DNA of 55,091 nucleotides, from IMG/VR virus record IMGVR_UViG_3300046820_001896; one strand, given 5' to 3'. A program made the position numbers and the translations under genes. The DNA comes from a virus. Taxonomy: Duplodnaviria > Heunggongvirae > Uroviricota > Caudoviricetes. Positions 10 to 16,621 of the stretch are shown piece by piece (position 1 is the stretch's first letter; each line of letters starts with the position of its first letter). The notes below the pieces were generated by a model that saw nothing but the letters and a program-made list of their open reading frames with translations, was not told the origin of the DNA and searched no databases.

Positions 10-3000
10 ATGAATGATGGTTTTGCGTGGAAAAACGTATACACACCATCAACATATTACAAAATTAATGACATCGTTGCATACGGTGGTTCATCATATA
101 TTTGTACTTACGCTCATACTGCAGGTGCTTTACTAAACGAAAGTTATTTTGACGTTTTTGCTAAAGGCGTTGAAGTTGAAGAATCATGGGATTCCGAAGT
201 AGAATACCAATTAGGCGATGTAGTTTCATATGGCGGTTACACATATTATGCATTAGAAGCAAACTCTGATGTTGTCCCTACTTCAGACGTTGCTGTGTGG
301 AGACCTTTCGTTGAAGGTATTAATAATCGTGGTCTATGGCAAGCTTCTGGTTCTGGTATTCAACCATATAAAACCGGTGACGTTGTTCGTCATGGTGGTA
401 ACGCATACTTGTGTATTGCTGATGCTACTACTCAATTGCCATCTGATACAGATTATTGGGAATTATTCATTGAAGGTTTTGCATGGCAACAAAACTGGAC
501 TTCAGGAAGTTCATACAAATTAAATGAAGCTGTTAAGTTTGGTACATCAACATATATTTGTATTCAAGCACATACAGCAAGTTCATTAAATTCACCAGAC
601 GTTGACGTAGATCACGATTATTGGGACACATTAGCTGATGGTTCAGCTTCTGCTGTTGTTACAGTTCAAGGTGACATGATTTATCGTGATGAATCTGGCG
701 CACAACGTTTGCCTATCGGTGAATTAGGACCAGAACACACTGATCATGAAGGTACTATACGCGCTATCCAACCGATTTTAGTCGTTAATCCTGATGGTAT
801 AGAACCTGAATGGTCAAGAACAGCACATATTGGTGTTGAAGCTATTCACGTTGATAACCATGTATTAGTTGGTGTAGATGATACTGAAGCTTCAGCAAGC
901 GCATCAGTGTTTATTGGTGTAGATGCACAATCATATTTGGTTGACGATTCACAATTTACAGGTTATGTTGGTTTAACTGACGTTAAATTTATTGCTGTAA
1001 CTGATTTAGATGGTTTCGGTCAAATCGCATTTAAGAACATTAATAGCGGAACATCAGCTTCAACTGACTTTATTATGTACACCGATGATGGTGATAATGA
1101 TTCAGGATGGATTGATATTGGTATTACATCATCTTCATTTGATATCACCTCTGGTTTCGGTATTACTGGTTCACATGATGGTTATATCTTCATGAATGCA
1201 CCAGTAAATTCATCTGGTTTTGGTAATTTAGTTATCGCTACTAGTGAAAATGGTACTGAAAAAGATATCGTTTTCGTAACAGGTGGTTTTGATCCTACTA
1301 CTAATACTGACGCTGAAAAGATGCGTATTATTGGTGAAGCACGTCCTGGCGCAATGTTTACTGGTGAAATCTCTGGTACAACATTAACAGTTACTGCAGT
1401 GTCTATGGGTACTATCTTATTTGATGGTGAACATACAATTAATGGTGCAGGTATTATTGACGGTACTGTAATTACTGCACAATTATCTGGTGCAGCAGGT
1501 TCAACAGGTCAATACACAGTTAATAAGAAACAAACTGTTGCAAGTCGTGCAATGACTCAAGATTTAAATCCAGCTGGTGTTGAGATTTATATTAATACTG
1601 CTGCTACAAACCCATACACTGGTGCTTTAAGAGTTAAAGGTGGTATTGGTGTTCAAGGTGACTTAGATCTTGAAGGTACTATCGAAGCTTACGGTGGTGC
1701 GATTTATCAAGGTACAGACGGTGCTATCACAGCTCGTATGTTAACACTTGATGATTCAGTTTCTCCTGGTTATGTAGGTCTAACAGATGCATCTGCAGTG
1801 TTTACTGGTCATGCAAACTCATTCGTACAAATGGCGTTGAAAAACTTCAGCGATGGTTCAGAAGCTTCTACAGACTTAATCGTATATGCATCTAATGGTG
1901 ATAACGAATCAGGTTGGATGGATATGGGTATCACTTCTGAGAACTATAACGACCCAACATTCACAGTTACTGGCCCATCGACTGGTTACATTTTCATGTC
2001 AGCACCAATAGGTAGTACTTCTACAGGTAACATGTTGGTTGGTACTAGTGAAAATGGTACTGAAAACGACATCGTATTCTTCACTGATGGTTTCGATGCT
2101 GGTAATGAAAAATTACGTATTGTAGGTAATACACGACCAGGTAAAGCTGCGGGTGTTGAGATTTATGCAGACACAGAATCTACATCAACTACTTCAGGAG
2201 CACTTCGTGTTGATGGTGGTGTAGGTATTCAAGGTAACTTAAACGTTGGTGGTAACGTAGCAATTACTGGTACAATTTCTATCGGTGGTTCTGGTTCATC
2301 TTTAGAAACAACAACCCTTGCTGTTTCAGATCCGATGATTCGTATGGCTTCTGGAAACCCAAGCGACTTGATCGACTTAGGTTTCTATGGCACATTTAGT
2401 TCAATTTCAACACTATTAAATGGTGCAATCAATGCATCTGTTACGACATTAACTGTTGATAGCACTACAGCGTTCCCAACATCTGGTAATTTGGTGTGCG
2501 GCACAGAAGAAATATCATACACTGGTAAAACTCCTACAACATTTACTGGTGTTACTCGTGGTGTTAATGGTACTACAGCAGCAGTTCATGGTGATAATTC
2601 TCCAATCTTCGTTGCTTCATATGCTGGTCTAGTAAGAGATGCTTCTGATGGTGCGTTTAAGTTATTCACTAATTTAAATACACTTGCACCAACAGCAACA
2701 GTAAACTTTGGTTCAGCAACACTTGCTGCCTTATCTGTGGGTGCAATTACTTCAACCGGTGATAGTACATTCTCAGGCGATATCGCGGTTAATGGTGGTG
2801 ATTTAACATCTACTGCTACAACATTTAACTTATTGAACTCTACAGTATCTACATTAAATATTGGTGGTGCAGCTAGTACGATTGCATTAGGAGCTTCAAA
2901 TAGCACATTAACATTAGGTGGAAACTTAACAGTTAATGGTATTACAACAGTTGAGTCAATCACTGAAATCATGGATGCTAAAGCTTCTGCTACTGGCACA

Positions 3001-3309
3001 GTAACACATGATTTCAATACAAGCGATGTATTCTATCACACTGGTATTTCTGCTAACTTTACAGCAAATATTACTAACATGCCAACAACTGTTGGTAGAA
3101 TTAGTACTGTTACATTGATCTTAGCACAAGGTGGTACAGGTTACTTACCAACGGCAGTTCAAATTAATGGTACTGGTCAAACTATTAGATGGGCAGGTAA
3201 CACACAACCTACTCCTCAAGCTAACAAAACAGACGTGGTTGTATTCACATTAATTAGAACAGCAGCTGGCGCTTGGGTAGTTTTAGGTCAAATGTCTTCT
3301 TACGGTTAA
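10..3309 (+). CDS. Large tail fibre / adhesin-like virion protein (may be 5'-truncated by the window edge)
   Basis: N-terminal repeats W-x5-Y-x3-D-x-V-x-Y/H-GG-x2-Y (CBM5/12-like). An internal module is duplicated. Contains beta-helix-like GALRVxGGxGxQG motifs and a Thr/Ser/Gly-rich composition. The frame is also open upstream of the ATG at 10. Confidence 0.75.
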   Translation: MNDGFAWKNVYTPSTYYKINDIVAYGGSSYICTYAHTAGALLNESYFDVFAKGVEVEESWDSEVEYQLGDVVSYGGYTYYALEANSDVVPTSDVAVWRPFVEGINNRGLWQASGSGIQPYKTGDVVRHGGNAYLCIADATTQLPSDTDYWELFIEGFAWQQNWTSGSSYKLNEAVKFGTSTYICIQAHTASSLNSPDVDVDHDYWDTLADGSASAVVTVQGDMIYRDESGAQRLPIGELGPEHTDHEGTIRAIQPILVVNPDGIEPEWSRTAHIGVEAIHVDNHVLVGVDDTEASASASVFIGVDAQSYLVDDSQFTGYVGLTDVKFIAVTDLDGFGQIAFKNINSGTSASTDFIMYTDDGDNDSGWIDIGITSSSFDITSGFGITGSHDGYIFMNAPVNSSGFGNLVIATSENGTEKDIVFVTGGFDPTTNTDAEKMRIIGEARPGAMFTGEISGTTLTVTAVSMGTILFDGEHTINGAGIIDGTVITAQLSGAAGSTGQYTVNKKQTVASRAMTQDLNPAGVEIYINTAATNPYTGALRVKGGIGVQGDLDLEGTIEAYGGAIYQGTDGAITARMLTLDDSVSPGYVGLTDASAVFTGHANSFVQMALKNFSDGSEASTDLIVYASNGDNESGWMDMGITSENYNDPTFTVTGPSTGYIFMSAPIGSTSTGNMLVGTSENGTENDIVFFTDGFDAGNEKLRIVGNTRPGKAAGVEIYADTESTSTTSGALRVDGGVGIQGNLNVGGNVAITGTISIGGSGSSLETTTLAVSDPMIRMASGNPSDLIDLGFYGTFSSISTLLNGAINASVTTLTVDSTTAFPTSGNLVCGTEEISYTGKTPTTFTGVTRGVNGTTAAVHGDNSPIFVASYAGLVRDASDGAFKLFTNLNTLAPTATVNFGSATLAALSVGAITSTGDSTFSGDIAVNGGDLTSTATTFNLLNSTVSTLNIGGAASTIALGASNSTLTLGGNLTVNGITTVESITEIMDAKASATGTVTHDFNTSDVFYHTGISANFTANITNMPTTVGRISTVTLILAQGGTGYLPTAVQINGTGQTIRWAGNTQPTPQANKTDVVVFTLIRTAAGAWVVLGQMSSYG

Positions 3310-3322
3310 TAGGTAGTAAAGA

Positions 3323-4960
3323 ATGGCTTTTTTAGGGTCTACTGGTGGAAATATTAGAAACAGCGGAAGGGGTGGTTTCCACCCTGGAGTTGGTCCGCAA
3401 GATATTAACTATCCAGTTTCTGTAAGTACTGGCACAGAGTTGCAATCACCAATTAATGGATTGCAACTTAGAATCAACCCATCTCAAGATTTGTGGACTA
3501 CATATCAAAATTTGCCAGCTTTTTTAACTGGTATTGGTAAAGTTACGTCTACTGTTATTAATGAAACAGATAGTGGCACATTCACCGTAACACAACCGTG
3601 TCGTGTTTGGTTACTTAGATCACCATCATGGAATGCTGTAGATGTTTCAGCATATACATTACATTCTACTTTAAATAGCGTTGGTATTGATGCATCTAAT
3701 ACATCAATCTATTATCGTGATGTTACACCAGGTACATATCCGTATGACAATAATTCAGCAATGTACATTTGGTCATTCGACAATCCTGTCTCAGAAGTAA
3801 GCGGTACATTAGGTACTACTGTTGTTAATGGAACAGGTGATACTACTGCTAACGTAAGTTCAACAAGAATTTCTGGACAACGTGGAACGATTGATCCATT
3901 CCACAATGGACCAGTAACATATTCTATTTCTTCTGGTGCTCTTCCCCCTGGTTTTACATTAAATTCCTCAACAGGTCAAATTACTGGTACATACACAGCA
4001 TCTGGTATCAATACTGATGGTCAAGTTTATAACTTTACTGTTCGTGCTACTGATAATTCTCCAGGAGCTAAATCAACATCTGATAGATCATATTCAGTTA
4101 CACTAAGTGTGCCTTGGTTATATCGTCAAATCATTACAACAATGTATATGGTTGGTGGATATAAAGACTCTACAGCATGGTCAAACTCTAATCGTTTTCC
4201 TCGTTCTACTGAAACATGTACTAACTTAGGAGATGGTTTAATTGATAACTATAATTATAAATCTGGCATGTGTAGCGACACATATGGATATGTGTTTGGT
4301 GCTGGTGGAGGACATTCTACTGCATTAAATACTACATCAAGAACAAACATTCGTACAGAAGCAAAAGCATCAAATCCTGGTGGTCCAGGATTCAATTGTG
4401 GAGATACTGGCACTGCATTCGCTCCAGATCGTAATAGATCATTTACTGTTGGTGGCGGTGTAAATAACTGTTTTAGATTCACTGCATCAAGCGAATCTTT
4501 TTCAACATTAGGTGGTGGTCAGGGTTCAGAAGCTAGTGCAATTTCTGGAGAAAATAAAGGTATTTTCTGGGGAAGTGCTAATAGATCAATTAACTTTTCT
4601 ACTGAAGCACAAGCCACAATTAGTCTTGCTGCTAGCGCACATCACCAACAAAAAGGTTTATCTTCTAAAGTTAATTTAGGTTATGCTGGTAATGAAGGTA
4701 CTTGGAACGGTGGTTATAATTGGCGTAAAACTAATATTGTCAATGAATCATATGGTACAATCACTAAAGCTCTTGCAAATTGCGGTGAAGAAAATTATGC
4801 AATGTCACAAGATAGAGGTTATATCTTAGGTGAGTATAACGGTGCACAGAATAATAACTGTGGTAGAGTAATTTACGCTACAGATGCTATCGCATCTGGC
4901 TTCACAAGTATTCAAGGACATGGCGGAGCTTCTTCAGGCCATTGTTTCTGGAGAGATTAA
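3323..4960 (+). CDS. Virion accessory protein: putative Ig (He_PIG-like) domain plus C-terminal Kelch-like beta-propeller
   Basis: YSISSGALPPGFTLNSSTGQITG ... YNFTVRATD is a putative Ig motif. The C-terminal part has repeated GY/F-x2-GG blades. Paralog of 4964-6211. Confidence 0.6.
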   Translation: MAFLGSTGGNIRNSGRGGFHPGVGPQDINYPVSVSTGTELQSPINGLQLRINPSQDLWTTYQNLPAFLTGIGKVTSTVINETDSGTFTVTQPCRVWLLRSPSWNAVDVSAYTLHSTLNSVGIDASNTSIYYRDVTPGTYPYDNNSAMYIWSFDNPVSEVSGTLGTTVVNGTGDTTANVSSTRISGQRGTIDPFHNGPVTYSISSGALPPGFTLNSSTGQITGTYTASGINTDGQVYNFTVRATDNSPGAKSTSDRSYSVTLSVPWLYRQIITTMYMVGGYKDSTAWSNSNRFPRSTETCTNLGDGLIDNYNYKSGMCSDTYGYVFGAGGGHSTALNTTSRTNIRTEAKASNPGGPGFNCGDTGTAFAPDRNRSFTVGGGVNNCFRFTASSESFSTLGGGQGSEASAISGENKGIFWGSANRSINFSTEAQATISLAASAHHQQKGLSSKVNLGYAGNEGTWNGGYNWRKTNIVNESYGTITKALANCGEENYAMSQDRGYILGEYNGAQNNNCGRVIYATDAIASGFTSIQGHGGASSGHCFWRD

Positions 4961-4963
4961 TAA

Positions 4964-6211
4964 ATGGCATTTTACGGAACTAAAGGCGGAAATAATAGAA
5001 ACAGTGGCCGCGGTGGATTTCACCCTGGAGCGATAACCGATACATCATCGTCTGCACCAGCTGGATCATTAGGAACTGCAACAGTTAGCGGTAGTGGAGT
5101 AGATATTGCCAATACAACTTCCAATTCAGTTTCTGGTCAACGCCAAGTATTTGATCCATGGCATACTGGTATTCAATACTCGGTAGTTTCAGGTTCTCTT
5201 CCTCCAGGATTTTCATTAAACGCATCTACCGGCCAGATTACTGGAACATACTCAGCGTCTGGTATTAATACTGACGGAACTGTTTACAACTTTACTATTC
5301 GTGCATCAGATAATTCTCCTGGTGCAAAAACCACATCTGATCGTTCGTATAGTGTAACGCTTTCAGTGCCATGGTTGTATCGTCAAATCATTACGACAAT
5401 ATACATGGCGGGTGGATATAAGGATTCTACTCTTTGGTCAAACGTTAACAGATTTCCAAGATCAACAGAAACATGTACTAATCTAGGCGATGGTAATATT
5501 GATAACTACCACTATAAGTCTGGTATGTGTGATGAAAATCGTGGCCACGTTTGGAATGGTAATACTACTACTACATTCAATATGCGAACAGAATCCAAAG
5601 TAAATGGAGTAGGTGCACCTGGTTATGCTTGTACAAATACAGGTACAACATTCGCGCCTGATCGCAATAGATCATTTACAACTGGTGAAGGTGTAAATAC
5701 TATGTTTAGGTTTACAGCTAGCACAAACTCATTTGCTAATTTGGGTGGTGGCAACGATGGTCATGCAACAGGAATATCTGGAGAAAATAAAGGCATCTAT
5801 TGGGGTCATGGCGGTACTAACCAAAATCGTAGAATAGATTTTAGTACAGAAGCGCAAGCTACTATTGGTATGGCTGGTGGAGCACACGGTCAACAAAAAG
5901 GAATGTCTGCAAAAACTGGTTTTGGCTATGGAGGTAATGAAGGTACGTATGCTGGTGGCTACAACTTTAGAAAAACTAATATTACCAACGAATCATATAG
6001 TACTGTTGCAAAAATGTGGGGTAATTGCGGTGAAGAAAACATGGGTATGTCACAAGATCGCGGTTACATAATTGGACAATACGATGATAGTATTGGTCAA
6101 AATAACAGATGCGGTAGACACATTTATGCAACTGATGCAGGAGCACAATTAAGTACAGAAGTACAAGGACACGCAGGAGCTTCTTCAGGACATTGTTTCT
6201 GGAGAAACTAA
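4964..6211 (+). CDS. Virion accessory protein, paralog of 3323-4960 (Ig-like plus propeller)
   Basis: Shares the N-terminus RNSGRGGFHPG, the Ig domain, the YRQIITT...GGYKDS block and the C-terminal GASSGHCFWR. Lacks the ~130 aa insert of the upstream copy. Confidence 0.6.
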   Translation: MAFYGTKGGNNRNSGRGGFHPGAITDTSSSAPAGSLGTATVSGSGVDIANTTSNSVSGQRQVFDPWHTGIQYSVVSGSLPPGFSLNASTGQITGTYSASGINTDGTVYNFTIRASDNSPGAKTTSDRSYSVTLSVPWLYRQIITTIYMAGGYKDSTLWSNVNRFPRSTETCTNLGDGNIDNYHYKSGMCDENRGHVWNGNTTTTFNMRTESKVNGVGAPGYACTNTGTTFAPDRNRSFTTGEGVNTMFRFTASTNSFANLGGGNDGHATGISGENKGIYWGHGGTNQNRRIDFSTEAQATIGMAGGAHGQQKGMSAKTGFGYGGNEGTYAGGYNFRKTNITNESYSTVAKMWGNCGEENMGMSQDRGYIIGQYDDSIGQNNRCGRHIYATDAGAQLSTEVQGHAGASSGHCFWRN

Positions 6212-6254: not shown

Positions 6255-7163
6255 ATGACTGATGTAGTAGAATATGGAAAATACAAGTATGAAAATTTCT
6301 TCCCTAAAAAGAAAATTTCAACTGATCTTTCTTTAATTCCAAAAAAATCCCAAGAATTACTAGAGTTTTCTTATAACAACTATTGGAGTACTCCAAAGTT
6401 CAAGCTTAAGTGGTTTGTGGGCCAAGCTGAATATACTCCATTCCATATTGTTCGTCAATACCTATTAGAACTTCGTGCTCGCGAAGATTCTTTAGAGTTG
6501 CAAGAATACGAACTTAACAAAATTAAAATCGAATTAAAGATGGCTATTCGTGATCGTGACGAATGCCAAGACGAATTACTTAAAGAAATGTTAGATCTAG
6601 AAGTAAAGAAGAAAACTAATGGAGTTGCTTCAACACAATCTAGAGTAAAAGATCTTTATATTGAACGTCAGTTTTTCTTAGAGTTAGTAGAAGAATTTTT
6701 GAATGGTCCTCATGGTAAAACACCAGATGGTCGTCCACTAACTGAAGTTCTTGGCACTGAAGAAGAAGAAAAATACGAACGCGAATATTGGACAGTTCGT
6801 TTAGCTCGCCAAGCAGCTATGGATCTATGTGCTTATGGACGTATTGGTTCAGGTAACTTAGACGCTATTATGCAACTTGGACCTGAGCAAAGGGAAGAAA
6901 CTCTTGCATTGGCACACACTGTCAACTTAGCAGTTGAACAACAACAAGTCAATATAAGACAAGAAGCTGCAAAAGCATTGCAATTAACTAATGATGGTAA
7001 ATTAAATTATATCGGTTCATTAGATCCACAGTTGATTAATAATGCTATTAACGCAGATTTAGAATTAATTAATGCAGCTAGCGCAAAATTAAATTTAAAT
7101 AATAATCCTTCTATTCCTGAACCTACTTTGCCAAAAGAATTCAATGAAATTTATAACGTTTGA
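6255..7163 (+). CDS. Conserved phage coiled-coil protein of unknown function
   Basis: Helical E/L/K-rich central segment, with motifs TPFHIVRQYLLEL and EYWTVRLARQAAMDL..GRIGSGNLDAI. I recall such proteins next to propeller-type fibre genes in aquatic T4-like phages (unverified). Confidence 0.55.
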   Translation: MTDVVEYGKYKYENFFPKKKISTDLSLIPKKSQELLEFSYNNYWSTPKFKLKWFVGQAEYTPFHIVRQYLLELRAREDSLELQEYELNKIKIELKMAIRDRDECQDELLKEMLDLEVKKKTNGVASTQSRVKDLYIERQFFLELVEEFLNGPHGKTPDGRPLTEVLGTEEEEKYEREYWTVRLARQAAMDLCAYGRIGSGNLDAIMQLGPEQREETLALAHTVNLAVEQQQVNIRQEAAKALQLTNDGKLNYIGSLDPQLINNAINADLELINAASAKLNLNNNPSIPEPTLPKEFNEIYNV

Positions 7164-7879: not shown

Positions 7880-9565
7880 ATGAGTATAGTGACTCCCAAA
7901 AAAATCTTCAGTATTCCAATCAATCCTAAGCTTTCGCAAGAAGAGTTTACGGCATTTTATCATTGGTTAGATCAGTACAAAGACTGGATAGCCGATGTAT
8001 ATTTCACTTCTAGAATTAACCCGTTCAATCAAGACGCAATGGGTGAAGTCATCATGTTTAATCAAGATAAGGTAAATCTTATTGAGACAGCATTAAACAT
8101 TCAAAAATATCTTGGTATTAAAGCATCAGCTACATTTAATAATATCCAAGTACCTCCAACACAAACCAATTTAGATACTTTCATCATTAACTTTAAACCG
8201 TTATATGATGCAGGTATTAGAACTGCGACCATCCCTCACACGCATTGGATGGCTACTGGTCAAATTAAAGCTGCATTCCCAGAATTATATGTTAAAAATA
8301 CTATTCTAAGAAATGTTAGACGACCAGCAGAAGTAGTTGCTTTAGCTAAAGAAGGTTTTGACTATATCAATTTAGATCGTGATTTAATGCGAGATAAAGA
8401 TGCATTGATACGATTACAAGATGCTAAAAAATGGATTAAGACAAATCTAAATAAAGATATTCATTATAGCTTATTAGCGAATGAAGGTTGTTTAGGCGAG
8501 TGCCATATGATGGACGAACATTTCGAATATAATAATACTCGAAATGACAAAGATCCTTCATATTTTAATTCTGCAATCAGTAGAGTTAGTTGTCCAAAAT
8601 GGGACGTTGAAGATCCTGCTGTTTATTTAAAGACTGCAAACTTCTCTCCTTGGAAATCAGATTGGGATGAATACTTAAAATTAGGAATTGACGTATTTAA
8701 AATGCATGGTCGTGAAAGTATTCAACGATTAGGCGAGACTATGCGCAAAGTAGAACGTTACGTTGCTAATGAAGAAGTTTTAGATGATAATTTTAAAGAC
8801 TTTATCGACAAAGCACAATTAACGGGTAAACCTATTAATATCTGGCGTGATAAGATTCGTAATTGTAAATTTGATTGCTGGGAATGTCAATACTGTGATA
8901 AGATCGAAGAAAAAAAAGACGAATACGATTATACTGCATTGACAAAGCATGTAGTAGATTCTATTGCTAAGAGCGGTATTCCAAAAGTTAATATCAATAT
9001 TAGTGGTTTAACAAGTTCTCGCGTTCAAACTTTATTAAACACTTTAGCTTCACAATGTGGTTCTTATTTAGAAGTTGGTTCATATTTAGGTGCAACTGCT
9101 GCAGCTGTATTACACAATAATCCTATCAATGCGTATTTCGTAGATAAGTGGGAAGAACAAATTCAACCTGCACGTGATGACATGCAAACTCAAGCAAATG
9201 ATTACGAAACATTTGCACAAAATATTACTCCTTATATCGGTAACTCTAATGTTAAAGTTTTAAAAGGAGATATGTTAGGAATTGATTTATTAGAAATAGA
9301 TCATACTATTGATATGTTTATGTACGATGGTCCGCACGATGTTAAGTCTACTGCGAATGCATTAAAATATTATTGGCCTAAACTATCTAAAGATTGTATT
9401 TTAGTGTTTGATGATGCAAACTGGGAATCAGTATTACAAGGCGCAAGAGAAGCATTACAAGAATTAGATGCACATGTAGTATATGAAAAACTTATTTTAA
9501 ATTCTGAAGAAAATCCTAGAGAGTGGTGGAATGGATTGTATATTGTGGTTATTAGGAAAACATGA
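7880..9565 (+). CDS. U32-family (UbiU/TrhP/RlhA-like) Fe-S protein fused to a class I SAM methyltransferase (Methyltransf_24-like)
   Basis: N-domain has LLANEGCLGECH, SCPKW and FKMHGRE (equivalent to U32 KIEGR), then CKFDCWECQYC. C-domain has motif I YLEVGSYLGAT and MFMYDGPH, plus LVFDD. Confidence 0.7.
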   Translation: MSIVTPKKIFSIPINPKLSQEEFTAFYHWLDQYKDWIADVYFTSRINPFNQDAMGEVIMFNQDKVNLIETALNIQKYLGIKASATFNNIQVPPTQTNLDTFIINFKPLYDAGIRTATIPHTHWMATGQIKAAFPELYVKNTILRNVRRPAEVVALAKEGFDYINLDRDLMRDKDALIRLQDAKKWIKTNLNKDIHYSLLANEGCLGECHMMDEHFEYNNTRNDKDPSYFNSAISRVSCPKWDVEDPAVYLKTANFSPWKSDWDEYLKLGIDVFKMHGRESIQRLGETMRKVERYVANEEVLDDNFKDFIDKAQLTGKPINIWRDKIRNCKFDCWECQYCDKIEEKKDEYDYTALTKHVVDSIAKSGIPKVNINISGLTSSRVQTLLNTLASQCGSYLEVGSYLGATAAAVLHNNPINAYFVDKWEEQIQPARDDMQTQANDYETFAQNITPYIGNSNVKVLKGDMLGIDLLEIDHTIDMFMYDGPHDVKSTANALKYYWPKLSKDCILVFDDANWESVLQGAREALQELDAHVVYEKLILNSEENPREWWNGLYIVVIRKT

Positions 9566-11091
9566 TTAAGAAAATAAAAAACATTGTTATTTTTGGTGGT
9601 GGTACTAGCGGTTGGCTAACTGCTGCTTATATCACTAATCAATTAAACTTTCCATGTAATATTACATTGATTGAAAGTAAAACAATTGGACCTATTGGAG
9701 TTGGTGAAGGTACTCAACCATTTACATCTAGATTTTTGTGGAAAGCAGGATTATCTCCAAAACAATGGATGAAACCCGCACAAGCTGCATTTAAATATGG
9801 AGTATTATTAGACGGTTGGAATAAAGAACCATATTTCGTAGACAATGATTTTATTGAGAATCACATTATAGGTCCTGAATTATATGCACATGACTATTTT
9901 ATTAATAAACCAAATAAAGAGTTTGTAGAATGGTTACCTGCTTATAGATTAGCAATGGCAAATAAAAGCCCTAAACTCGATGGATATGATCACTGTTTAT
10001 CTCAACGATCTTATGAAGATTGGGGTGCAGTGCATTTTTCTGCGTTTGATATCTTAGATACTATTCATGATTTAATTAAAGATAGAATCACATATTTTGA
10101 TACTAAAATTATTGATATTAAAAGTAATGATGATGGTATTGAATATTTGCTAGATGAACAAGACAGAAAACATACTGCTGATTTATTCATCGATTGCACA
10201 GGATTTGAAGCAAAATTAATTAGTAAAGAATTAAATGTTCCATTTGTTGACATATCAAATATTTTGCCATGTGATAGTGCTGTTGCTATGCCTACACAAT
10301 TTAAAGACCCTAAAAACGAATGCCATCCATATACAAAAGCAACTACTATGACTGCTGGTTGGAGATGGACAATTCCAACATTTAAACAAATTGGCAATGG
10401 TTATGTTTATTCATCGAAGCATATTACACCTGAACAAGCTGAAAAAGAATTAAGAGATAGTATTGGTGAATATGATGCAAAAGCTAGACATGTGAAGATG
10501 CGCTGTGGTGCATCTGAAAAAGTTGCTCATAAGAACGTTATTGCTGTAGGTTTATCTGCTGGTTTCGTAGAACCATTAGAAGCAACTGGTATTACGTTCA
10601 CAACAAAAATAGTTGAATCTTTGTGTGCTGGTTTAAATTTCCACAATGGTGTATGGAATGATAATTTACAAGTAGCATTTAATACTGCTTATATCAATAT
10701 GGTAACTGAAATCATTTCATTTGTATGGGCTCATTATCATTATAGCGATAGAGCTGATACACCATTTTGGCAAGAAATTAGAAACCAAAAAATAGAACAT
10801 GCGCCCGAATACGTTCAAGAAATTTTTAGACAATTCTATCCAAAATTACATAGAAATTTTTATTTAGATGATAAGACATCTGGTTTCCATACCGGTCATT
10901 GGTTTAGTATGCTACATGCAAATGATGCATATAAAGATAAAGAAAAATATGAGTTAAGCGAAGAACAGTTGAAATATGCAGAGTACTATATTAAGACTAA
11001 AAAATCTGAGATAGATAATGCTATAGAGTATTTCCCAAATCATTATGAATTTTTGAAGGATTGGTATGCGAGAACCGGTGACGCTGTTTAG
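9562..11091 (+). CDS. Flavin-dependent halogenase, tryptophan halogenase (PrnA) family
   Basis: FAD motif GGGTSGW, IGVGEGT, putative catalytic Lys in AAFKYG, halogenase signature WRWTIP, and GFVEPLEATG. Confidence 0.85.
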   Translation: MIKKIKNIVIFGGGTSGWLTAAYITNQLNFPCNITLIESKTIGPIGVGEGTQPFTSRFLWKAGLSPKQWMKPAQAAFKYGVLLDGWNKEPYFVDNDFIENHIIGPELYAHDYFINKPNKEFVEWLPAYRLAMANKSPKLDGYDHCLSQRSYEDWGAVHFSAFDILDTIHDLIKDRITYFDTKIIDIKSNDDGIEYLLDEQDRKHTADLFIDCTGFEAKLISKELNVPFVDISNILPCDSAVAMPTQFKDPKNECHPYTKATTMTAGWRWTIPTFKQIGNGYVYSSKHITPEQAEKELRDSIGEYDAKARHVKMRCGASEKVAHKNVIAVGLSAGFVEPLEATGITFTTKIVESLCAGLNFHNGVWNDNLQVAFNTAYINMVTEIISFVWAHYHYSDRADTPFWQEIRNQKIEHAPEYVQEIFRQFYPKLHRNFYLDDKTSGFHTGHWFSMLHANDAYKDKEKYELSEEQLKYAEYYIKTKKSEIDNAIEYFPNHYEFLKDWYARTGDAV

Positions 11092-11674
11092 AGCAGATTT
11101 ATTTAGTTATTCAAACGTAGGAACGCCTGAACAAAGGCAAGAATTAATTGATCGTTTACTAGCTCTGAAAGCATCAGGAGCTAGAGATATCAATGAACTA
11201 ACAAATAATGAAGGATGTTGGAGATATTCATATCCAGTAAAAGATTGTGATTGGCTAAATCATGCTCTTTCAGTTATTATGTCAGATGCATTTGAATATT
11301 ACGGAAATCAACCTGGAAGTAGAATTAGATTACCTAGTGAAAAAGATAAAATCTCAATAGGTAGTTGGTGTAATATCAATGAGAAGTATTCTCGTAATGT
11401 ATATCACTCTCATAAAGGTTCTATTTTTTCATGTGTGTATTATCTTCAAGCAACCGATACAGGTAAACTAGTATTATCTAATCCTGCAAACGTATTGAAT
11501 GATTGCAGTAACTTTTCTCCATACACAAGAGACTTTTTCTTTTTACCAAAAGATGGTGATTTAGTGCTTTGGCCTTCATGGATTCCGCATGAAGTAGAAC
11601 CTAATATGTCTGATCGTCAGCGTATTAATATAGTATTTGATATTGATGTTCCATTTATCTATGAACCAAAATGA
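11066..11674 (+). CDS. 2OG-Fe(II) oxygenase superfamily protein (TIGR02466-like)
   Basis: Metal motif HSH (NVYHSHKGS), SCVYY, distal His in WPSWIPHEV, and RINIVFD. Confidence 0.8.
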   Translation: MREPVTLFRADLFSYSNVGTPEQRQELIDRLLALKASGARDINELTNNEGCWRYSYPVKDCDWLNHALSVIMSDAFEYYGNQPGSRIRLPSEKDKISIGSWCNINEKYSRNVYHSHKGSIFSCVYYLQATDTGKLVLSNPANVLNDCSNFSPYTRDFFFLPKDGDLVLWPSWIPHEVEPNMSDRQRINIVFDIDVPFIYEPK

Positions 11675-12152
11675 AGAATTATTTGCTGTACAAATTTTTA
11701 CTGGCAAAATAACACTAACCGAAAAAATTATACAAGATTATTTGAAATGGTTAGAAATCCAAAAGTTATTGGAAGAAGACGTTAGTAATATAAGCACTAC
11801 TATCAATGGTTGGCAATACGCATTTAAACATAGCGATACTCAACCTGAATGGCACAAATCGATTGTGTCACAAATCGATGCCGATTTTCATTTAAAAGAC
11901 AAAAGTAGTTGGATTGTTGACTATGATATTGGCGGATATCAAGATCCGCATATTCATAGAAGTAGTCATGGTACTATGATAATCAATTTAGTTGGTAGCG
12001 GAGATTTATTATTATATGACACTAGACCAACGGGTGGATTTGAAGTTAAAACTTTGAACGCAGGAGATTGGATATATATTCCAGGTTGGTTGATGCATTC
12101 TAGTCGACCATGCAAAGAAAAACGAAGTATATTAGTGATTGATTATAGATGA
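11661..12152 (+). CDS. Cupin / 2OG-Fe(II) oxygenase-like protein
   Basis: QDPHIH ... IPGWLMHSSRP ... RSILV pattern. The start is placed at ATG 11661, overlapping the upstream gene, rather than at 11637. Confidence 0.7.
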   Translation: MNQNEELFAVQIFTGKITLTEKIIQDYLKWLEIQKLLEEDVSNISTTINGWQYAFKHSDTQPEWHKSIVSQIDADFHLKDKSSWIVDYDIGGYQDPHIHRSSHGTMIINLVGSGDLLLYDTRPTGGFEVKTLNAGDWIYIPGWLMHSSRPCKEKRSILVIDYR

Positions 12153-12925
12153 CGAAGATTGAATTTTTTTCTAGCATTGATGGAGTAGCAGATTCTACTC
12201 CTATTTTAGAGGCGAAAGAATACCAACCATTTTGGTTTAATGAGTGTAAAGCTGATTATATAGATCAACTTAATGCAGCAAATGGTGGAACATTTGCACA
12301 CACTTATAGATGTCCAGGAATATTTGATCTTTACAAAAATGGATTTTTTGTAACTGCATGGTGTGATATTAAAATAGAAACAAATGGAGATCCAAATTAT
12401 TTTAAGTGGACTTTACCTAATGTAAATTTAGTAGAGTATATGGATAAGGCAGAAAATAGTCCAATTTTACAAGAACATTCTTTTAATGGTATTGCAAAAC
12501 ATCTTCCTATTCCACCAAACACACTTAGATCAATTATTAAAATTAACACTCCTTGGCATGTTATGGCGCCAAAAGGTGTAAAGTTTATGGTATTACCTGT
12601 GCCATATTCAAATAATTTTACATTTACACACTCGACTGGAATATTGGATCCAAGCGTTTCTTCAGCACTGAATTGTCAATTATATTGGCATCAACTTAAT
12701 GGTTCATATACAATTAAAGCTGGAACTCCTCTTTCGTATATTATACCATTAACGGAGAAAAAGTATAAGTTTGAATGTAGAGATAAAAATGCTAGAGATG
12801 AATTGTGGTTAAAGAAAAAAGAATTTCTTAAAAATTTTACTTTCACATTTAAACGTACTGCTATGAAATCTGCGTATGATAAACATAATGAATCGAAGTG
12901 CCCATTTTCAAGGCTATTTAAATGA
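12149..12925 (+). CDS. Conserved phage protein, beta-rich (DUF6065-like, tentative)
   Basis: CPGIFDL..GF..TAWCD, IKINTPW, GILD and IKAGTPL motifs. I recall this family next to phage oxygenase genes. Confidence 0.45.
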   Translation: MTKIEFFSSIDGVADSTPILEAKEYQPFWFNECKADYIDQLNAANGGTFAHTYRCPGIFDLYKNGFFVTAWCDIKIETNGDPNYFKWTLPNVNLVEYMDKAENSPILQEHSFNGIAKHLPIPPNTLRSIIKINTPWHVMAPKGVKFMVLPVPYSNNFTFTHSTGILDPSVSSALNCQLYWHQLNGSYTIKAGTPLSYIIPLTEKKYKFECRDKNARDELWLKKKEFLKNFTFTFKRTAMKSAYDKHNESKCPFSRLFK

Positions 12926-13281: not shown

Positions 13282-14319
13282 ATGGACTTCGTTCTAAATG
13301 TTCTATTAAAGAACATCGATTATCTCTGGATGGTATTCTTCATTATGATCTCTGCGGGACTAGCAAAACAGTATCAACTTTTTGCCCCTGCTTATGCCTA
13401 TGTTAAGAATACATTCAGAAGCAACAAGTTCGTAGTCGTACTACTTAGTGCTATTGGTGGCGTACTCCCAATTGAGGGAAGAGTTACTGTTAGTGCGGGT
13501 CTTCTTGACACCGTGGCTCCTAAAAGTGGTCCTGGTAGAGAGAAGATGGGTATTGTAGACTACTTAGCAACACACCACTATTACATGTGGTCCCCGCTTG
13601 AAAAGACTGTTATTATCCCAATTGCTGCATTTGGTTTAACTTATGCTGCTTGGATTGGAATGATTTGGCCTTTGATTGCAATTAGTTTAATCTTCATCTA
13701 TTGGTATATTTGGCAAAAGGTTAAAGATGATGAAATCGCTATCACACCTGGCAACTTTAAGATATCTGCAGTTGCTCGCGGTGTAGTTCCCATGTTTGCT
13801 GCTATCGCAGCTTATATTGCAGGAGTAAACTTCATAGCGTGTTTTGGATTCTTAACACTTTACTATATGTTTGTGACTCAGCAATGGGACATTAAAAAGC
13901 TATTAGGTTATGTGAATTGGAAAGTGTTGATTATTGTTGGTATCGCTATTATGGCTGGTAACTACTTTAAATCACAAAGCGCTTTCTTTGAAGCCATGAT
14001 TAAAGGCAGTATGTTAGATCCTACTACTTTTATCGGTATGGCAATACTCAGCGCATTAAGCTTTGTGTTCGCATTCTTGATGGGATCTAGTGGTAAGTTT
14101 GTGGCTTTAGCTGTGTTAACAGCACAAGCTTTTGGTCCACAATACTTCTTATGGTTCTTTGCGATTGATTATGCTGGTTACCTATTATCTCCCACTCACA
14201 AGTGTGTGATGGTTGGTAATACGTATTTTGGCACTCCACTAAAAACTTACTATGCTGCTCTCGGAGCGTGGTCAGTGTTATTGGTTGCAGTAGCTGGTGT
14301 TTTTACTTTTTTAATTTAA
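13282..14319 (+). CDS. Multi-pass membrane permease-like protein (DUF401 / ion-transporter superfamily-like)
   Basis: About 10 hydrophobic segments. GGVLPIEG, HHYYMWSPL and GYLLSPTHKC resemble DUF401 motifs as I recall them (e.g. SPxHxC). Confidence 0.6.
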   Translation: MDFVLNVLLKNIDYLWMVFFIMISAGLAKQYQLFAPAYAYVKNTFRSNKFVVVLLSAIGGVLPIEGRVTVSAGLLDTVAPKSGPGREKMGIVDYLATHHYYMWSPLEKTVIIPIAAFGLTYAAWIGMIWPLIAISLIFIYWYIWQKVKDDEIAITPGNFKISAVARGVVPMFAAIAAYIAGVNFIACFGFLTLYYMFVTQQWDIKKLLGYVNWKVLIIVGIAIMAGNYFKSQSAFFEAMIKGSMLDPTTFIGMAILSALSFVFAFLMGSSGKFVALAVLTAQAFGPQYFLWFFAIDYAGYLLSPTHKCVMVGNTYFGTPLKTYYAALGAWSVLLVAVAGVFTFLI

Positions 14320-14331
14320 GTTTAAATGCAT

Positions 14332-14362
14332 AAAAATGGGGGCCTTGGGTCCCCATTTTTTT
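14332..14362. terminator. Intrinsic terminator, probably bidirectional
   Basis: AAAAATGGGGGCC-TTG-GGTCCCCATTTTT stem with A and T tracts on the flanks. Confidence 0.85.
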
Positions 14363-14391: not shown

Positions 14392-14829
14392 ATGAATAAA
14401 CTCGTAGAACAATTACGCAAAGTCTTAGCATCTAATTTTACACTATATCTTAAAACTCAAATGTTCCATTGGAACGTAGAAGGTCCTCATTTTAGTGACT
14501 ATCATGAATTTTGGGCAGACGTCTATACAGACTTATATGAACAAAACGATTTATTAGCAGAATTTATTAGACAGTCAAATGAGTATGCTCCAGGATCATT
14601 AGAAGTTTATAAAGAACTTTCTTTAATTCAAGACGAAGAAGGTTTTCCTAAAGCTAAAGAAATGTTTTCTCGTTTCTTGAGCAATAATGATGTAATGATT
14701 ACATTATATAATCAATTATATAAACTTGCAGAAGAATCAGAAGAATATCAGATTTCTGATTTTTGTGCTCAACGTTTAGCAGCACATAAAAAACATGCAT
14801 GGATGGTTCGTTCTATCCTAAAGGACTAA
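14392..14829 (+). CDS. dps: Dps / ferritin-like DNA-protection protein
   Basis: HWNVEGPHF..YH and D..AE ferroxidase-centre pattern, C-terminal KHAWM, and GGAG Shine-Dalgarno. Confidence 0.9.
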   Translation: MNKLVEQLRKVLASNFTLYLKTQMFHWNVEGPHFSDYHEFWADVYTDLYEQNDLLAEFIRQSNEYAPGSLEVYKELSLIQDEEGFPKAKEMFSRFLSNNDVMITLYNQLYKLAEESEEYQISDFCAQRLAAHKKHAWMVRSILKD

Positions 14830-14836
14830 TACTAAT

Positions 14837-15574
14837 ATGGCAATCCCAACAAGCAGAGAAGAATTAAAAGAATATTGCTTGAGAGCACTGGGTCAGCCTG
14901 TGCTTGAAGTGAACATTGATGACGATCAAGTAGAAGATCGTATCGATGAAGCACTTCAAAAATATTATGATTACCATTCAGACGCACAGAAGCGTGTTTA
15001 TATTCCACATCAAGTATCAGATATCGATATAGCTAATGGATATTTGACGTTATCAGATGATGTAATTTCAGTTCAACGTATTTTGCCATTGACTTCTGCA
15101 TGGTCAGGTATGAATATGTTCAATATGAAATATCAGATGTACTTAAATGACTTCTATGCTTTGTATCGTGCAGACTCTATGCAATACTTCGTAGAGATGC
15201 AACAATATCTTTCTACATTAGATTCTTTGCTGAATGGCGTACAAACTGTTCAATATCAACGCCATGGTAATAGACTATACATCGAAACTAAGTGGAGCGA
15301 GAAAGTTCAACCAGGCCAATATATCATGGTTGAAGCTTATGCTCGTGTTGTTAGTGATGAAGTATGGAATGACTTTTGGTTAAAGCGTTATGCAACTGCA
15401 TTGATTCAATTCCAATGGGGTGCAAACTTAGCTAAGTTCGATGGTATGCAATTACCCGGTGGTGTTACGATTAATGCGCGTCAATATATTGATGATGCTG
15501 AGAACGATATTCGTCTTTTAGAAGAAGAACTTCGTAATACACACGAATTGCCAGTAGATTTCTTCTGTGGATAA
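14837..15574 (+). CDS. gp13: Neck protein gp13
   Basis: EYCLRALGQPVLEVNIDDDQVEDRIDEAL and LPGGVTIN motifs; synteny. Confidence 0.9.
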   Translation: MAIPTSREELKEYCLRALGQPVLEVNIDDDQVEDRIDEALQKYYDYHSDAQKRVYIPHQVSDIDIANGYLTLSDDVISVQRILPLTSAWSGMNMFNMKYQMYLNDFYALYRADSMQYFVEMQQYLSTLDSLLNGVQTVQYQRHGNRLYIETKWSEKVQPGQYIMVEAYARVVSDEVWNDFWLKRYATALIQFQWGANLAKFDGMQLPGGVTINARQYIDDAENDIRLLEEELRNTHELPVDFFCG

Positions 15575-15583
15575 GAGTAACTA

Positions 15584-16621
15584 ATGCCAACAAATGTCTT
15601 CTTCAACCCCGGTGTTCTATCAGAACAACGTCTCTATGAGGATATGATCGAAGAGTCTTTACGTATTTACGGTCAAGACATCTATTATATTCCTAGAACG
15701 CTTAAGAACTTAGATCAGGTTCTTAATGATGCAGTAGCATCTGAATTTAATCAAGCATACTTCATCGAAATGTATATCGATGAAGGCGGATATACTGGTG
15801 AAGGTACTATTATGTCTAAGTTTGGATTAGAGATTCGAGATCAAGCTACATTCGTTGTATCACGTCGCCGTTGGGAAAACTTTATTGGACGAGAAAATAC
15901 TACTATGATTGGTGGTCGTCCAAATGAAGGTGACTTATTATACATCCCGCTTTCTGGCACATTTATGGAAATCAAATTCGTTGAACACGAAGCTGCTTTC
16001 TATCAATTGGCTAACGTTTTCGTTTATGAATTACATTGTGAAACATGGGAATACTCTGGCGAGAAGTTCAATACTGGTTATGAAATCATTGATGGTATTG
16101 AAAATACATATGCACCAGCCCAACGCTTAACACTTGGTTCTAACAATGGCATTAACTTCCATCCTAATGAAGAAGTTCAACAGTTTGCTGGTTACGATAC
16201 AAACAATAATCCAATATTTGTATATGGTAATTTAGCTAGTGTTGAATTTACTGGTGGTTTAGCTTCAGTTATTACTGTAAACCAAATTCGTTCTAGCGAT
16301 AATAAACCTAGAAACTTCCAAGAATCTGGCATTGGTGATGCAGCTGTAGAACGTCGTATTATGGGTATGGCTTCAGGAGCTACATACATAATTGAAATAG
16401 CAGGTGATGCAAAAGAATTACCTAATGATCCTAATGCACAAAATATTGACTTTGAAGAATTCGGTGATACTATCCTCGATTTCTCTGAGTCTAACCCATT
16501 CGGCGAACCGGGTGGAGATTATCAACAACAAACATTAACTGATTACGAACCTCAAGTAATTAGATTAGACAATAACATCCTTCGCTTTGATGAAAACACA
16601 GCGACATGGGATTCAGTATAA
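15584..16621 (+). CDS. gp14: Neck protein gp14 with C-terminal extension
   Basis: LYEDMIEESLRIYGQDIYYIPR, SKFGLEIRD, GDLLYIP and DFSESNPFG motifs; synteny. Confidence 0.9.
   Translation: MPTNVFFNPGVLSEQRLYEDMIEESLRIYGQDIYYIPRTLKNLDQVLNDAVASEFNQAYFIEMYIDEGGYTGEGTIMSKFGLEIRDQATFVVSRRRWENFIGRENTTMIGGRPNEGDLLYIPLSGTFMEIKFVEHEAAFYQLANVFVYELHCETWEYSGEKFNTGYEIIDGIENTYAPAQRLTLGSNNGINFHPNEEVQQFAGYDTNNNPIFVYGNLASVEFTGGLASVITVNQIRSSDNKPRNFQESGIGDAAVERRIMGMASGATYIIEIAGDAKELPNDPNAQNIDFEEFGDTILDFSESNPFGEPGGDYQQQTLTDYEPQVIRLDNNILRFDENTATWDSV

Follow-up and report, generated by a model that had tools for sequence, protein, structure and literature searches.

A phage protein family that joins a divergent U32-like barrel to a predicted O-methyltransferase beside halogenase and oxygenase genes

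The gene and its two domains

We analysed a 55,091-nt stretch of viral DNA (IMG/VR record IMGVR_UViG_3300046820_001896), here called the window, with a focus on an open reading frame (ORF) at 7880..9565 on its plus strand. The window is a piece of an uncultured T4-like myovirus; it encodes gp13/14 neck, gp15 and gp9/10-like genes, and its major capsid protein shares 61–64% identity with its counterparts in Pelagibacter and Methylophilales myophages. The DNA sequencing runs that match the window best bear the label freshwater metagenome and may be its origin; no RNA run was listed for it. The ORF encodes a 561-aa protein (P0001) composed of two domains, a predicted barrel of U32 type and a predicted O-methyltransferase, and we refer to it as U32-MT. 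Its ATG lies 19 nt past the stop codon of the upstream gene, a 238-aa ORF of unknown function, and its own stop codon overlaps the start of a halogenase gene by 4 nt. This is a true gene and not a chance ORF, because we found 1871 homologues of the protein among 8000 scored candidates, phrog_1458 matches it over its full length (E 3e-162, PHROGs search), and an intact copy is present in all 80 related viral loci that we compared (IMG/VR loci with 52–93% identity in the U32-MT protein). A first-pass annotation had read the ORF as a U32 hydroxylase-like domain fused to an O-methyltransferase-like domain. Every sequence string that it named was found at the position given within the 561-aa ORF, and its observations are confirmed with three corrections, which concern the Pfam U32 match, the cysteine motif and a supposed linker.

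The N-terminal domain (aa 1 to ~350; 7880..8929, plus strand) was modelled by AlphaFold (AF2) as a (β/α)8 barrel, with a predicted local distance difference test score (pLDDT) of 92.1 and a predicted template modelling score of 0.88. When this model was compared with the PDB, the top match was the U32 protein Mk0906 (5d88; Foldseek E 2e-7), and the independent aligner VIA-align again ranked 5d88 first, with Z 16.6 and a root mean square deviation of 3.2 over 226 aa, the next TIM-barrel family reaching Z 12.6. Seven of the top eight Swiss-Prot structural matches were U32 proteins; Foldseek gave the order MJ1657, TrhP, TrhP2, three further TrhP entries, PrtC and TrhP1, with RlhA lower. The alignment with MJ1657 covers aa 9–345 at 18% identity (template modelling score, TM, 0.66/0.73), and canonical PF01136 clusters in the ESM Atlas match the model at TM 0.59–0.69. 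The U32 TIM-barrel fold anticipated by the first-pass annotation is thus predicted by AF2, Foldseek and VIA-align alike. We found no sign of a radical SAM (S-adenosylmethionine) protein, either as a PF04055 match or among the top 50 PDB matches of Foldseek or VIA-align. The ESM Atlas also contains a radical SAM cluster, of 622-aa Acidobacteriota proteins, that matches the model at TM 0.70 over 303 aa, where the matching part is either a fused U32-like second domain or the radical SAM barrel itself.

In sequence searches the U32 kinship of the domain was visible only as a borderline profile–profile alignment, next to the predicted fold. The Peptidase_U32 hidden Markov model, which the first-pass annotation had put forward as a check, returned nothing for the domain at E 10, and only one of 66 family members reached E 0.033. 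None of 20 diverse homologues of the domain had a Pfam match at E 0.01 or better. A phmmer search of the whole protein against PDB sequences gave nothing, and a profile of the 66 N-terminal domains matched just de novo TIM barrels and a zinc finger in the same collection, all insignificantly. The domain was recovered by phrog_36869, a family of the barrel alone (E 1e-80), which PHROGs lists, like phrog_1458 for the fusion, as "unknown function". When the profile was aligned by hhalign with a shallow profile of four E. coli U32 proteins, the two ran in register over aa 63–178 (E 1e-4), and the family-conserved N87, P134, G159 and R167 coincided with conserved U32 residues N, P, G and R. Run in forced global or greedy mode, hhalign lengthened this alignment, with confidence near zero in the cysteine region. 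From the modelled fold and these alignments we conclude that this is a true, if very divergent, domain of the U32 superfamily that forms its own unnamed clade.

An exhaustive search of representatives yielded 247 relatives of the N-terminal domain, from which 66 homologues, 23–62% identical to the window protein, were aligned (alignment A1). The invariant columns of A1 are exactly seven cysteines of this domain: C204, C208, C238, C329, C333, C336 and C339. The first group (8480..8602, plus strand) combines C204-X3-C208, within NEGCxGxC...EH (NEGCLGEC...EH in the window protein; aa 201–214, nt 8480–8521), with C238 in the SCPKW motif (VSCPKW; aa 236–241). It is followed by FKMHGRE (aa 273–279, nt 8696–8716), a conserved string that we take to correspond to KIEGR, the U32 strand motif, its KxxGR aligning with KIEGR in forced hhalign mode only. 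The second group, C329-X3-C333-X2-C336-X2-C339, forms the string CKFDCWECQYC (aa 329–339, nt 8864–8896). In A1, conservation reaches at least 90% at E202, E213, H214, K274, G277 and R278.

The cysteines and the FKMHGRE string that the first-pass annotation pointed out are present, but the cysteine spacing is not the canonical one. Canonical U32 proteins carry CX6CX15CX3C, whereas the phage domain has CX3C-X29-C plus CX3CX2CX2C, and the low-confidence forced alignment sets its CX3C opposite the last two cysteines of the U32 motif. The CX6CX15CX3C motif, which binds a [4Fe-4S] cluster, has been described as essential for U32 oxidases (PMC11574389). The altered pattern does not exclude a cluster, because ligand positions also differ between UbiU and UbiV. 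Nor is the CX3CX2CX2C box a fusion linker, as had been thought: it is invariant also in unfused homologues of about 340 aa (alignments A1 and A5) and hence belongs to the barrel domain. In the AF2 model it sits on a loop before the last long helix, and it probably forms a second metal or Fe-S site. We infer that the seven cysteines together most likely serve as ligands for one Fe-S or metal centre, or for two.

The C-terminal domain (aa 366–561; 8975..9562, plus strand) is assigned to the class I SAM-dependent O-methyltransferases on the basis of a Pfam match, an alignment of 15 fused homologues (A4), the AF2 model and Foldseek. Methyltransf_24 (PF13578) matches aa 397–512 (E 1e-10) and spans profile positions 1–104 of 105; with 42.8 bits against a curated cutoff of 26.3, the Methyltransf_24-like reading of the first-pass annotation is borne out. 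The motifs LEVGSYLGAT (SAM motif I; nt 9068–9097), YDGPHD (nt 9314–9340), FDDANW (nt 9404–9424) and WWNG are invariant or nearly so across A4, the first three lying on the plus strand and the middle two carrying metal-site-like acidic residues. Fully invariant are the E, G and G of motif I and three aspartates, D483 of YDG and D511–D512 of FDDANW, which align with the IDA and DN metal motifs of B. subtilis TrmR and of 3ntv. The divalent-cation triad of COMT and TrmR (D ... D-N) thus appears conserved at the alignment level, as a putative metal site.

A profile built from A4 found only two credible PDB matches, S. aureus MW1564 (3ntv, E 0.01) and B. subtilis TrmR/YrrM (5zw3, E 0.025), both with marginal E values. 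The AlphaFold model of the domain (pLDDT 92.8) shows alternating β and α elements, and its nearest PDB folds by Foldseek were COMT, TrmR, Rv0187, an Anaplasma O-methyltransferase, MycF and TomG. TrmR was the first Swiss-Prot fold match (E 9e-10) and came second to third in the PDB search, where COMT, Rv0187 and the Anaplasma enzyme tied with it (E 1.5e-8 to 5e-8); since the PDB fold E values all lie between 1e-8 and 1e-7, its lead over small-molecule O-methyltransferases is within noise. JGI names the homologues "predicted O-methyltransferase YrrM". As judged from alignment and model, the domain is a cation-dependent O-methyltransferase of the catechol O-methyltransferase/TrmR class with predicted catalytic activity, in line with the earlier O-methyltransferase reading. 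That the seven cysteines and the SAM-motif and metal-site residues have been kept over deep divergence points to conserved cofactor-dependent catalysis.

Neighbourhood and distribution of the family

Comparison of the 80 related loci, most of which come from one phage lineage and whose counts therefore overstate their independence, revealed a conserved cassette behind fibre-like genes. It comprises phrog_1409, U32-MT, a flavin-dependent halogenase, a 2-oxoglutarate (2OG) oxygenase and a DUF6065-like gene, is found in 62–78 of the 80 loci down to 52% identity, and nearly always keeps its gene order and common strand. In the window, all on the plus strand, the phrog_1409 protein (302 aa, unknown function; 6255..7163) recurs in 78 loci, the halogenase (Trp_halogenase family, Pfam E 9e-95; 9562..11091) in 73, the 2OG-Fe(II) oxygenase (2OG-FeII_Oxy_5; 11066–11674) in 70 and the phrog_7084/DUF6065-like ORF (12149–12925) in 62. 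A cupin-like ORF (11637–12152) and a membrane, transporter-like DUF401 (CitMHS-like) protein (13282..14319), likewise on the plus strand, occur in 23 and 22 loci, respectively. Against the PDB, the halogenase matched bacterial tryptophan 5/6/7-halogenases (E 6e-71) and VirX1 (E 9e-52). No radical SAM gene belongs to the cassette across the 80 loci. We also found no link of U32-MT to RNA in sequence or context, with no RNA enzymes among the conserved neighbours and no tRNA genes in the window by tRNA scan.

The fibre-like genes are tandem paralogues encoding He_PIG (Ig-like) proteins (3323–4960 and 4964–6211; 72 of the 80 loci), which are 66% identical over 399 aa and are preceded by a gene for a 1099-aa protein with three CBM_5_12 carbohydrate-binding modules (10–3309). 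At the other end lies a ferritin-like gene (14392–14829; Pfam Ferritin, E 8e-23). A T4 late-promoter-like box, TATAAATA, stands ahead of it at 14362; this box is not enriched in the window and is absent upstream of the U32-MT gene, the copy at 14362 being the nearest. Promoter and terminator scans of the window stayed at chance level, and a search of a plasmid collection gave no match; for phrog_1409, an Atlas feature search returned nothing usable. The phage ferritin may supply iron for the upstream Fe-S and Fe(II) enzymes, and more generally the DUF401 permease and the ferritin could serve substrate or iron supply.

The family is widespread among cultured phages. Matches at about 40–46% identity were found in 126 cultured phage records, nearly all of them T4-like cyanophages, including PSSM4_035 of P-SSM4 (T4-GC 354), which is annotated as "hypothetical protein"; since 2005 more than 120 genomes of cultured cyanophages have listed the fusion as "hypothetical". 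In the searchable literature we found no paper on a fusion of U32 and O-methyltransferase domains, and none tying U32 proteins to cyanophages, to a phage O-methyltransferase or hydroxylase, or to RiPPs (ribosomally synthesised, post-translationally modified peptides). The architecture is known to databases solely as a protein of unknown function, and the earlier remark that no phage enzyme of this kind had been characterised agrees with this search.

The barrel without the methyltransferase is present in three Ralstonia jumbo-phage records. In Ralstonia phage RP31 the unfused barrel gene (42% identity) is directly preceded by ORF137, a phrog_1409 relative (E 3e-13), and directly followed by a DUF401 gene (locus L002, 6016–7056; 34% identity, E 7e-57), and this three-gene link spans unrelated phages. 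At another locus (L006) a Trp_halogenase gene lies directly downstream of a homologue of 26–31% identity. Because some homologues bear a different C-terminal domain, the barrel has been joined to more than one partner. In the homologue P0125 a Gly/Asn/Tyr-rich domain (aa 340–553) that has no match in the window replaces the methyltransferase; we considered whether this extension was akin to the fibre-like proteins of the window and rejected the idea, as tblastn found no similarity. The homologue P0126 is devoid of the YDGPHD region, and the extra regions of P0139, P0150, P0232 and P0244 contained no Pfam domains.

Outside phages we surveyed ten distinct contexts of unfused homologues. A radical SAM gene was located within two genes of the homologue in eight of the ten, and its frame often overlaps or abuts that of the homologue (e.g. 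at L097, L098 and L102). One cluster comprises PqqD, two radical SAM-SPASM genes and a 47-aa ORF; the latter (L008, 4996–5139), which follows the unfused U32-like gene, PqqD and the radical SAM-SPASM pair, has a Tyr/Gly/Cys-rich C-terminal half and is likely a RiPP precursor. Further contexts hold a PP-binding protein with a radical SAM and a creatininase-family gene; a B12-radical SAM gene with a radical SAM gene and an asparagine synthase; and a 50-aa ORF with a radical SAM-SPASM gene and an amidohydrolase. Two are radical SAM-rich clusters, one of them with sugar-modification genes. On one contig of a deltaproteobacterial metagenome-assembled genome (L101), a member of the divergent clade (414 aa) and a canonical Peptidase_U32 gene (1456–2388, 310 aa) are 3 kb apart, an arrangement which shows that canonical and divergent U32 genes coexist in one locus.

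Unfused homologues were also included in two peptide-arginase clusters (PF12640), independent of each other, that have S41 and S8 peptidases. The homologues in these DD(I/V)LF-type clusters are up to 37% identical to the N-terminal domain of the window protein. One of the clusters, L100, lies on a 6.7-Mb bacterial chromosome and encodes six tandem precursors of 50–54 aa ending in DEILF; the locus (14821–15883 and 9001–11152) holds the arginase, S41 and S8 peptidases, a radical SAM gene and the unfused U32-like gene, and we regard it as an uncharacterised member of the orphan DD(I/V)LF RiPP family (PMC12703449). The characterised flm and ohk clusters of this family contain 2OG, JmjC or cupin oxygenases and no U32-like gene (PMC12703449 supplement). 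In the regions fetched for the two clusters with a U32-like gene we found no cupin or 2OG oxygenase, which is consistent with, but not proof of, the barrel being an O2-independent stand-in for the hydroxylase. Since the unfused homologues occupy RiPP-type clusters, their contexts suggest that this unnamed U32-like clade acts on peptides.

Proposed function and competing explanations

Our preferred reading, which we hold tentatively, is that U32-MT is a bifunctional tailoring enzyme that hydroxylates its target and then O-methylates it, the target more likely being an aromatic side chain in a peptide or protein, or an aromatic small molecule, than tRNA. By analogy with UbiU/V, TrhP and RlhA, the predicted Fe-S U32-type domain would, without O2, hydroxylate or otherwise oxidise an sp2 carbon, and the fused catechol-type O-methyltransferase would cap the new hydroxyl, for a net methoxy group. 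The halogenase and the 2OG and cupin oxygenases would add further marks. The enzyme would work within the cassette behind the fibre-like genes, to which some loci add the DUF401 permease and ferritin, and its substrate would most likely be such a side chain, perhaps of a virion or fibre protein, or such a molecule. As far as the analogy carries, a methoxy group on an aromatic target is the probable product.

The strongest argument for the coupling of hydroxylation and methylation is that the fusion reproduces in one chain the B. subtilis operon yrrM-yrrN-yrrO, in which trmR, trhP1 and trhP2 lie together (PMC6599085); the parallel with the TrhP/TrmR pathway drawn by the first-pass annotation is supported. 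The preference for a peptide, protein or aromatic target derives from the neighbours, a halogenase and 2OG and cupin oxygenases, and from the unfused homologues in RiPP and radical SAM clusters. The earlier interpretation is therefore supported in part. Its idea of hydroxylation followed by O-methylation is plausible given the U32 fold and the class of the methyltransferase, but the U32 domain lies outside Pfam, its cysteines are non-canonical and its hydroxylase activity is assigned by analogy only. From its list of targets, an aromatic ring or a protein fits better; the neighbours and the clusters of unfused homologues point away from tRNA, rRNA and DNA.

Several observations weigh against our proposal. 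Neither Pfam nor NCBIfam matched aa 1–375, even at E 10, the domain fails the Pfam U32 model (PF01136, IPR001539), and the hhalign probability of its kinship to U32 was borderline, at only 55%. It is without the CX6CX15CX3C motif called essential for U32 oxidases (PMC11574389). Hydroxylase chemistry is attributed to this clade entirely by analogy, and the case for the canonical U32 proteins is itself genetic, with no direct in vitro demonstration of hydroxylase activity (PMC10990095). The cultured cyanophages do not keep the halogenase linkage: in P-SSM4, denV instead of a halogenase lies downstream of the homologue, and in S-ShM2 the halogenase is 20 kb away from it. There is no precursor-like small ORF beside the U32-MT gene in the window, and the dominance of one lineage among the 80 loci must be kept in mind.

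The closest competitor, which we think unlikely while giving it real weight, is that the barrel is a U32-fold Fe-S enzyme with non-hydroxylating chemistry, such as electron transfer or radical chemistry together with radical SAM enzymes, dehydrogenation, or the formation of C-S or C-C bonds on peptides or sugars, and that the methyltransferase acts on a pre-existing O, N or C atom. The cysteine pattern is indeed unlike that of U32 oxidases and includes CX3CX2C, a spacing of radical SAM type; the radical SAM genes in eight of the ten non-phage contexts, often overlapping or abutting, and the sugar-modification cluster fit such chemistry, as does the 622-aa radical SAM cluster in the ESM Atlas, which at TM 0.70 matches the model as closely as canonical U32 clusters do. 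However, no radical SAM protein appeared in the top 50 PDB matches of either aligner, the CX3CX2C box is placed at the C-terminal end of the barrel and not after strand 1, and the phage cassette is without a radical SAM gene. In addition, a catechol-type O-methyltransferase, of a class that acts on aromatic-ring hydroxyls, is most simply explained by a partner that makes the hydroxyl, and the two DD(I/V)LF clusters that bear homologues, unlike the published ones, had no cupin or 2OG oxygenase in the regions fetched. Far less probable is a fused TrhP and TrmR that would convert U34 of host or phage tRNA, or C5 of an rRNA or DNA pyrimidine, to the 5-hydroxy- and then the 5-methoxy-pyrimidine and so retune decoding during infection. 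The nearest characterised relatives of both domains do belong to the pathway for 5-methoxyuridine at tRNA position 34 (mo5U34), with TrhP, TrhP1 and TrhP2 among the top fold matches of the barrel and TrmR first in Swiss-Prot for the methyltransferase, and their genes adjoin in the B. subtilis operon. The phage barrel is nevertheless far from TrhP: it has no Pfam match, shares 12–15% identity in structural alignments, finds its best match in the uncharacterised archaeal MJ1657 and not in TrhP, and is devoid of the C-terminal domain of TrhP and TrhP1. TrmR does not stand out beyond noise from COMT, Rv0187 and other small-molecule O-methyltransferases, what is conserved next to the gene is a halogenase and oxygenases and not RNA enzymes, and the homologues occupy peptide or natural-product clusters.

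A protein that is no redox enzyme, whether a U32 "collagenase-type" peptidase or a degenerate barrel serving as structural or assembly factor for the adjacent fibre proteins, seems to us very improbable. The U32 family was historically named after the collagenase PrtC, which is among the fold matches, and the gene does lie among fibre-like structural genes. Such a role is at odds with seven cysteines and SAM-motif and metal-site residues that stay invariant across deep divergence, with the fact that every U32 protein functionally assigned by genetics is an O2-independent hydroxylation factor, and with homologues in non-phage biosynthetic clusters. A bolder form of our preferred reading, in which U32-MT tailors an aromatic target, sees in the clade with seven invariant cysteines a new maturase family that acts on peptides or proteins without O2. 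Its bacterial members would partner radical SAM enzymes in RiPP pathways and replace cupin or 2OG hydroxylases, and in phages the methyltransferase fusion would, with the halogenase and oxygenases, place methoxy groups and halogens on aromatic residues of the phage's own fibre or virion proteins or on a small peptide. We consider this wider picture speculative and rather unlikely as a whole; if true, methoxy and halogen decoration would be a chemical tuning of host recognition or virion stability.

To our knowledge, U32 proteins are the sole enzymes linked to hydroxylation with oxygen from prephenate, and we know of no in vitro system for them. A single polypeptide that couples a U32-type barrel to a product-trapping methyltransferase could ease an assay, since a methoxy group, the expected product, is stable. 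Aquatic phages carry the family in abundance, and it neighbours the halogenase family that gave VirX1; solving the substrate of one should explain that of the other. Orphan RiPP clusters, to which the family is linked, open another way to the function, through bacteria, and point to a possibly new class of peptide maturases.

Comparison with known systems

The best structural matches of the barrel, Mk0906 (5d88) and MJ1657, are uncharacterised archaeal U32 proteins, both without a methyltransferase fusion. Characterised relatives that share the U32 barrel are UbiU and UbiV, 4Fe-4S proteins that serve O2-independent hydroxylation of the ubiquinone ring, and their ligand sets (C169, C176, C193 and C232 in UbiU; C39, C180, C193 and C197 in UbiV) provide a precedent for shifted cysteines. 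Their substrate is an aromatic ring, and the new hydroxyls are O-methylated by a separate enzyme of ubiquinone biosynthesis. The phage protein, related to these at hhalign E 1e-4, differs by its extra four-cysteine box and its fused methyltransferase, and it has no UbiT-like partner. UbiU-V also function in aerobically grown cells, and prephenate is the oxygen source for UbiU/V, TrhP and RlhA (PMC10990095). In the radical SAM superfamily CX3CX2C follows strand 1, whereas in the phage protein it occupies aa 329–336, after the barrel.

The C-terminal domain shares its Rossmann fold, SAM motif I and metal-site acidic residues with COMT, the CCoAOMT-like Rv0187, TomG and MycF/TylF (Methyltransf_3/Methyltransf_24). 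In contrast to COMT and TrmR it is short (~195 aa) and lacks their N-terminal helices, and among cation-dependent class I O-methyltransferases its own features are the conserved His in YDGPHD, the WWNG motif and the fusion to a barrel predicted to bind Fe-S. The downstream halogenase (9562–11091) is of the same family as VirX1 of cyanophage Syn10 (PDB 6qgm), which is not itself a relative of U32-MT; VirX1 has a large open active site and takes bulky aromatic substrates, its natural substrate being unidentified (PMC8407142). In clusters of the DD(I/V)LF type, to which flm and ohk belong, unfused homologues lie beside the arginase, S41/S8 peptidases, radical SAM/SPASM genes and DEILF-ending precursors, whereas no precursor, arginase or radical SAM gene adjoins the phage gene.

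The nearest parallel remains B. subtilis TrhP1/TrhP2 (YrrO/YrrN) with TrmR (YrrM). The phage barrel differs from TrhP in having no PF01136 match, another cysteine motif and no U32/TrhP C-terminal domain, and the gene differs in context, a halogenase and oxygenase cassette behind fibre genes. Both systems bring together a U32 fold and a COMT-class methyltransferase, there as neighbours in an operon and here as a fusion.

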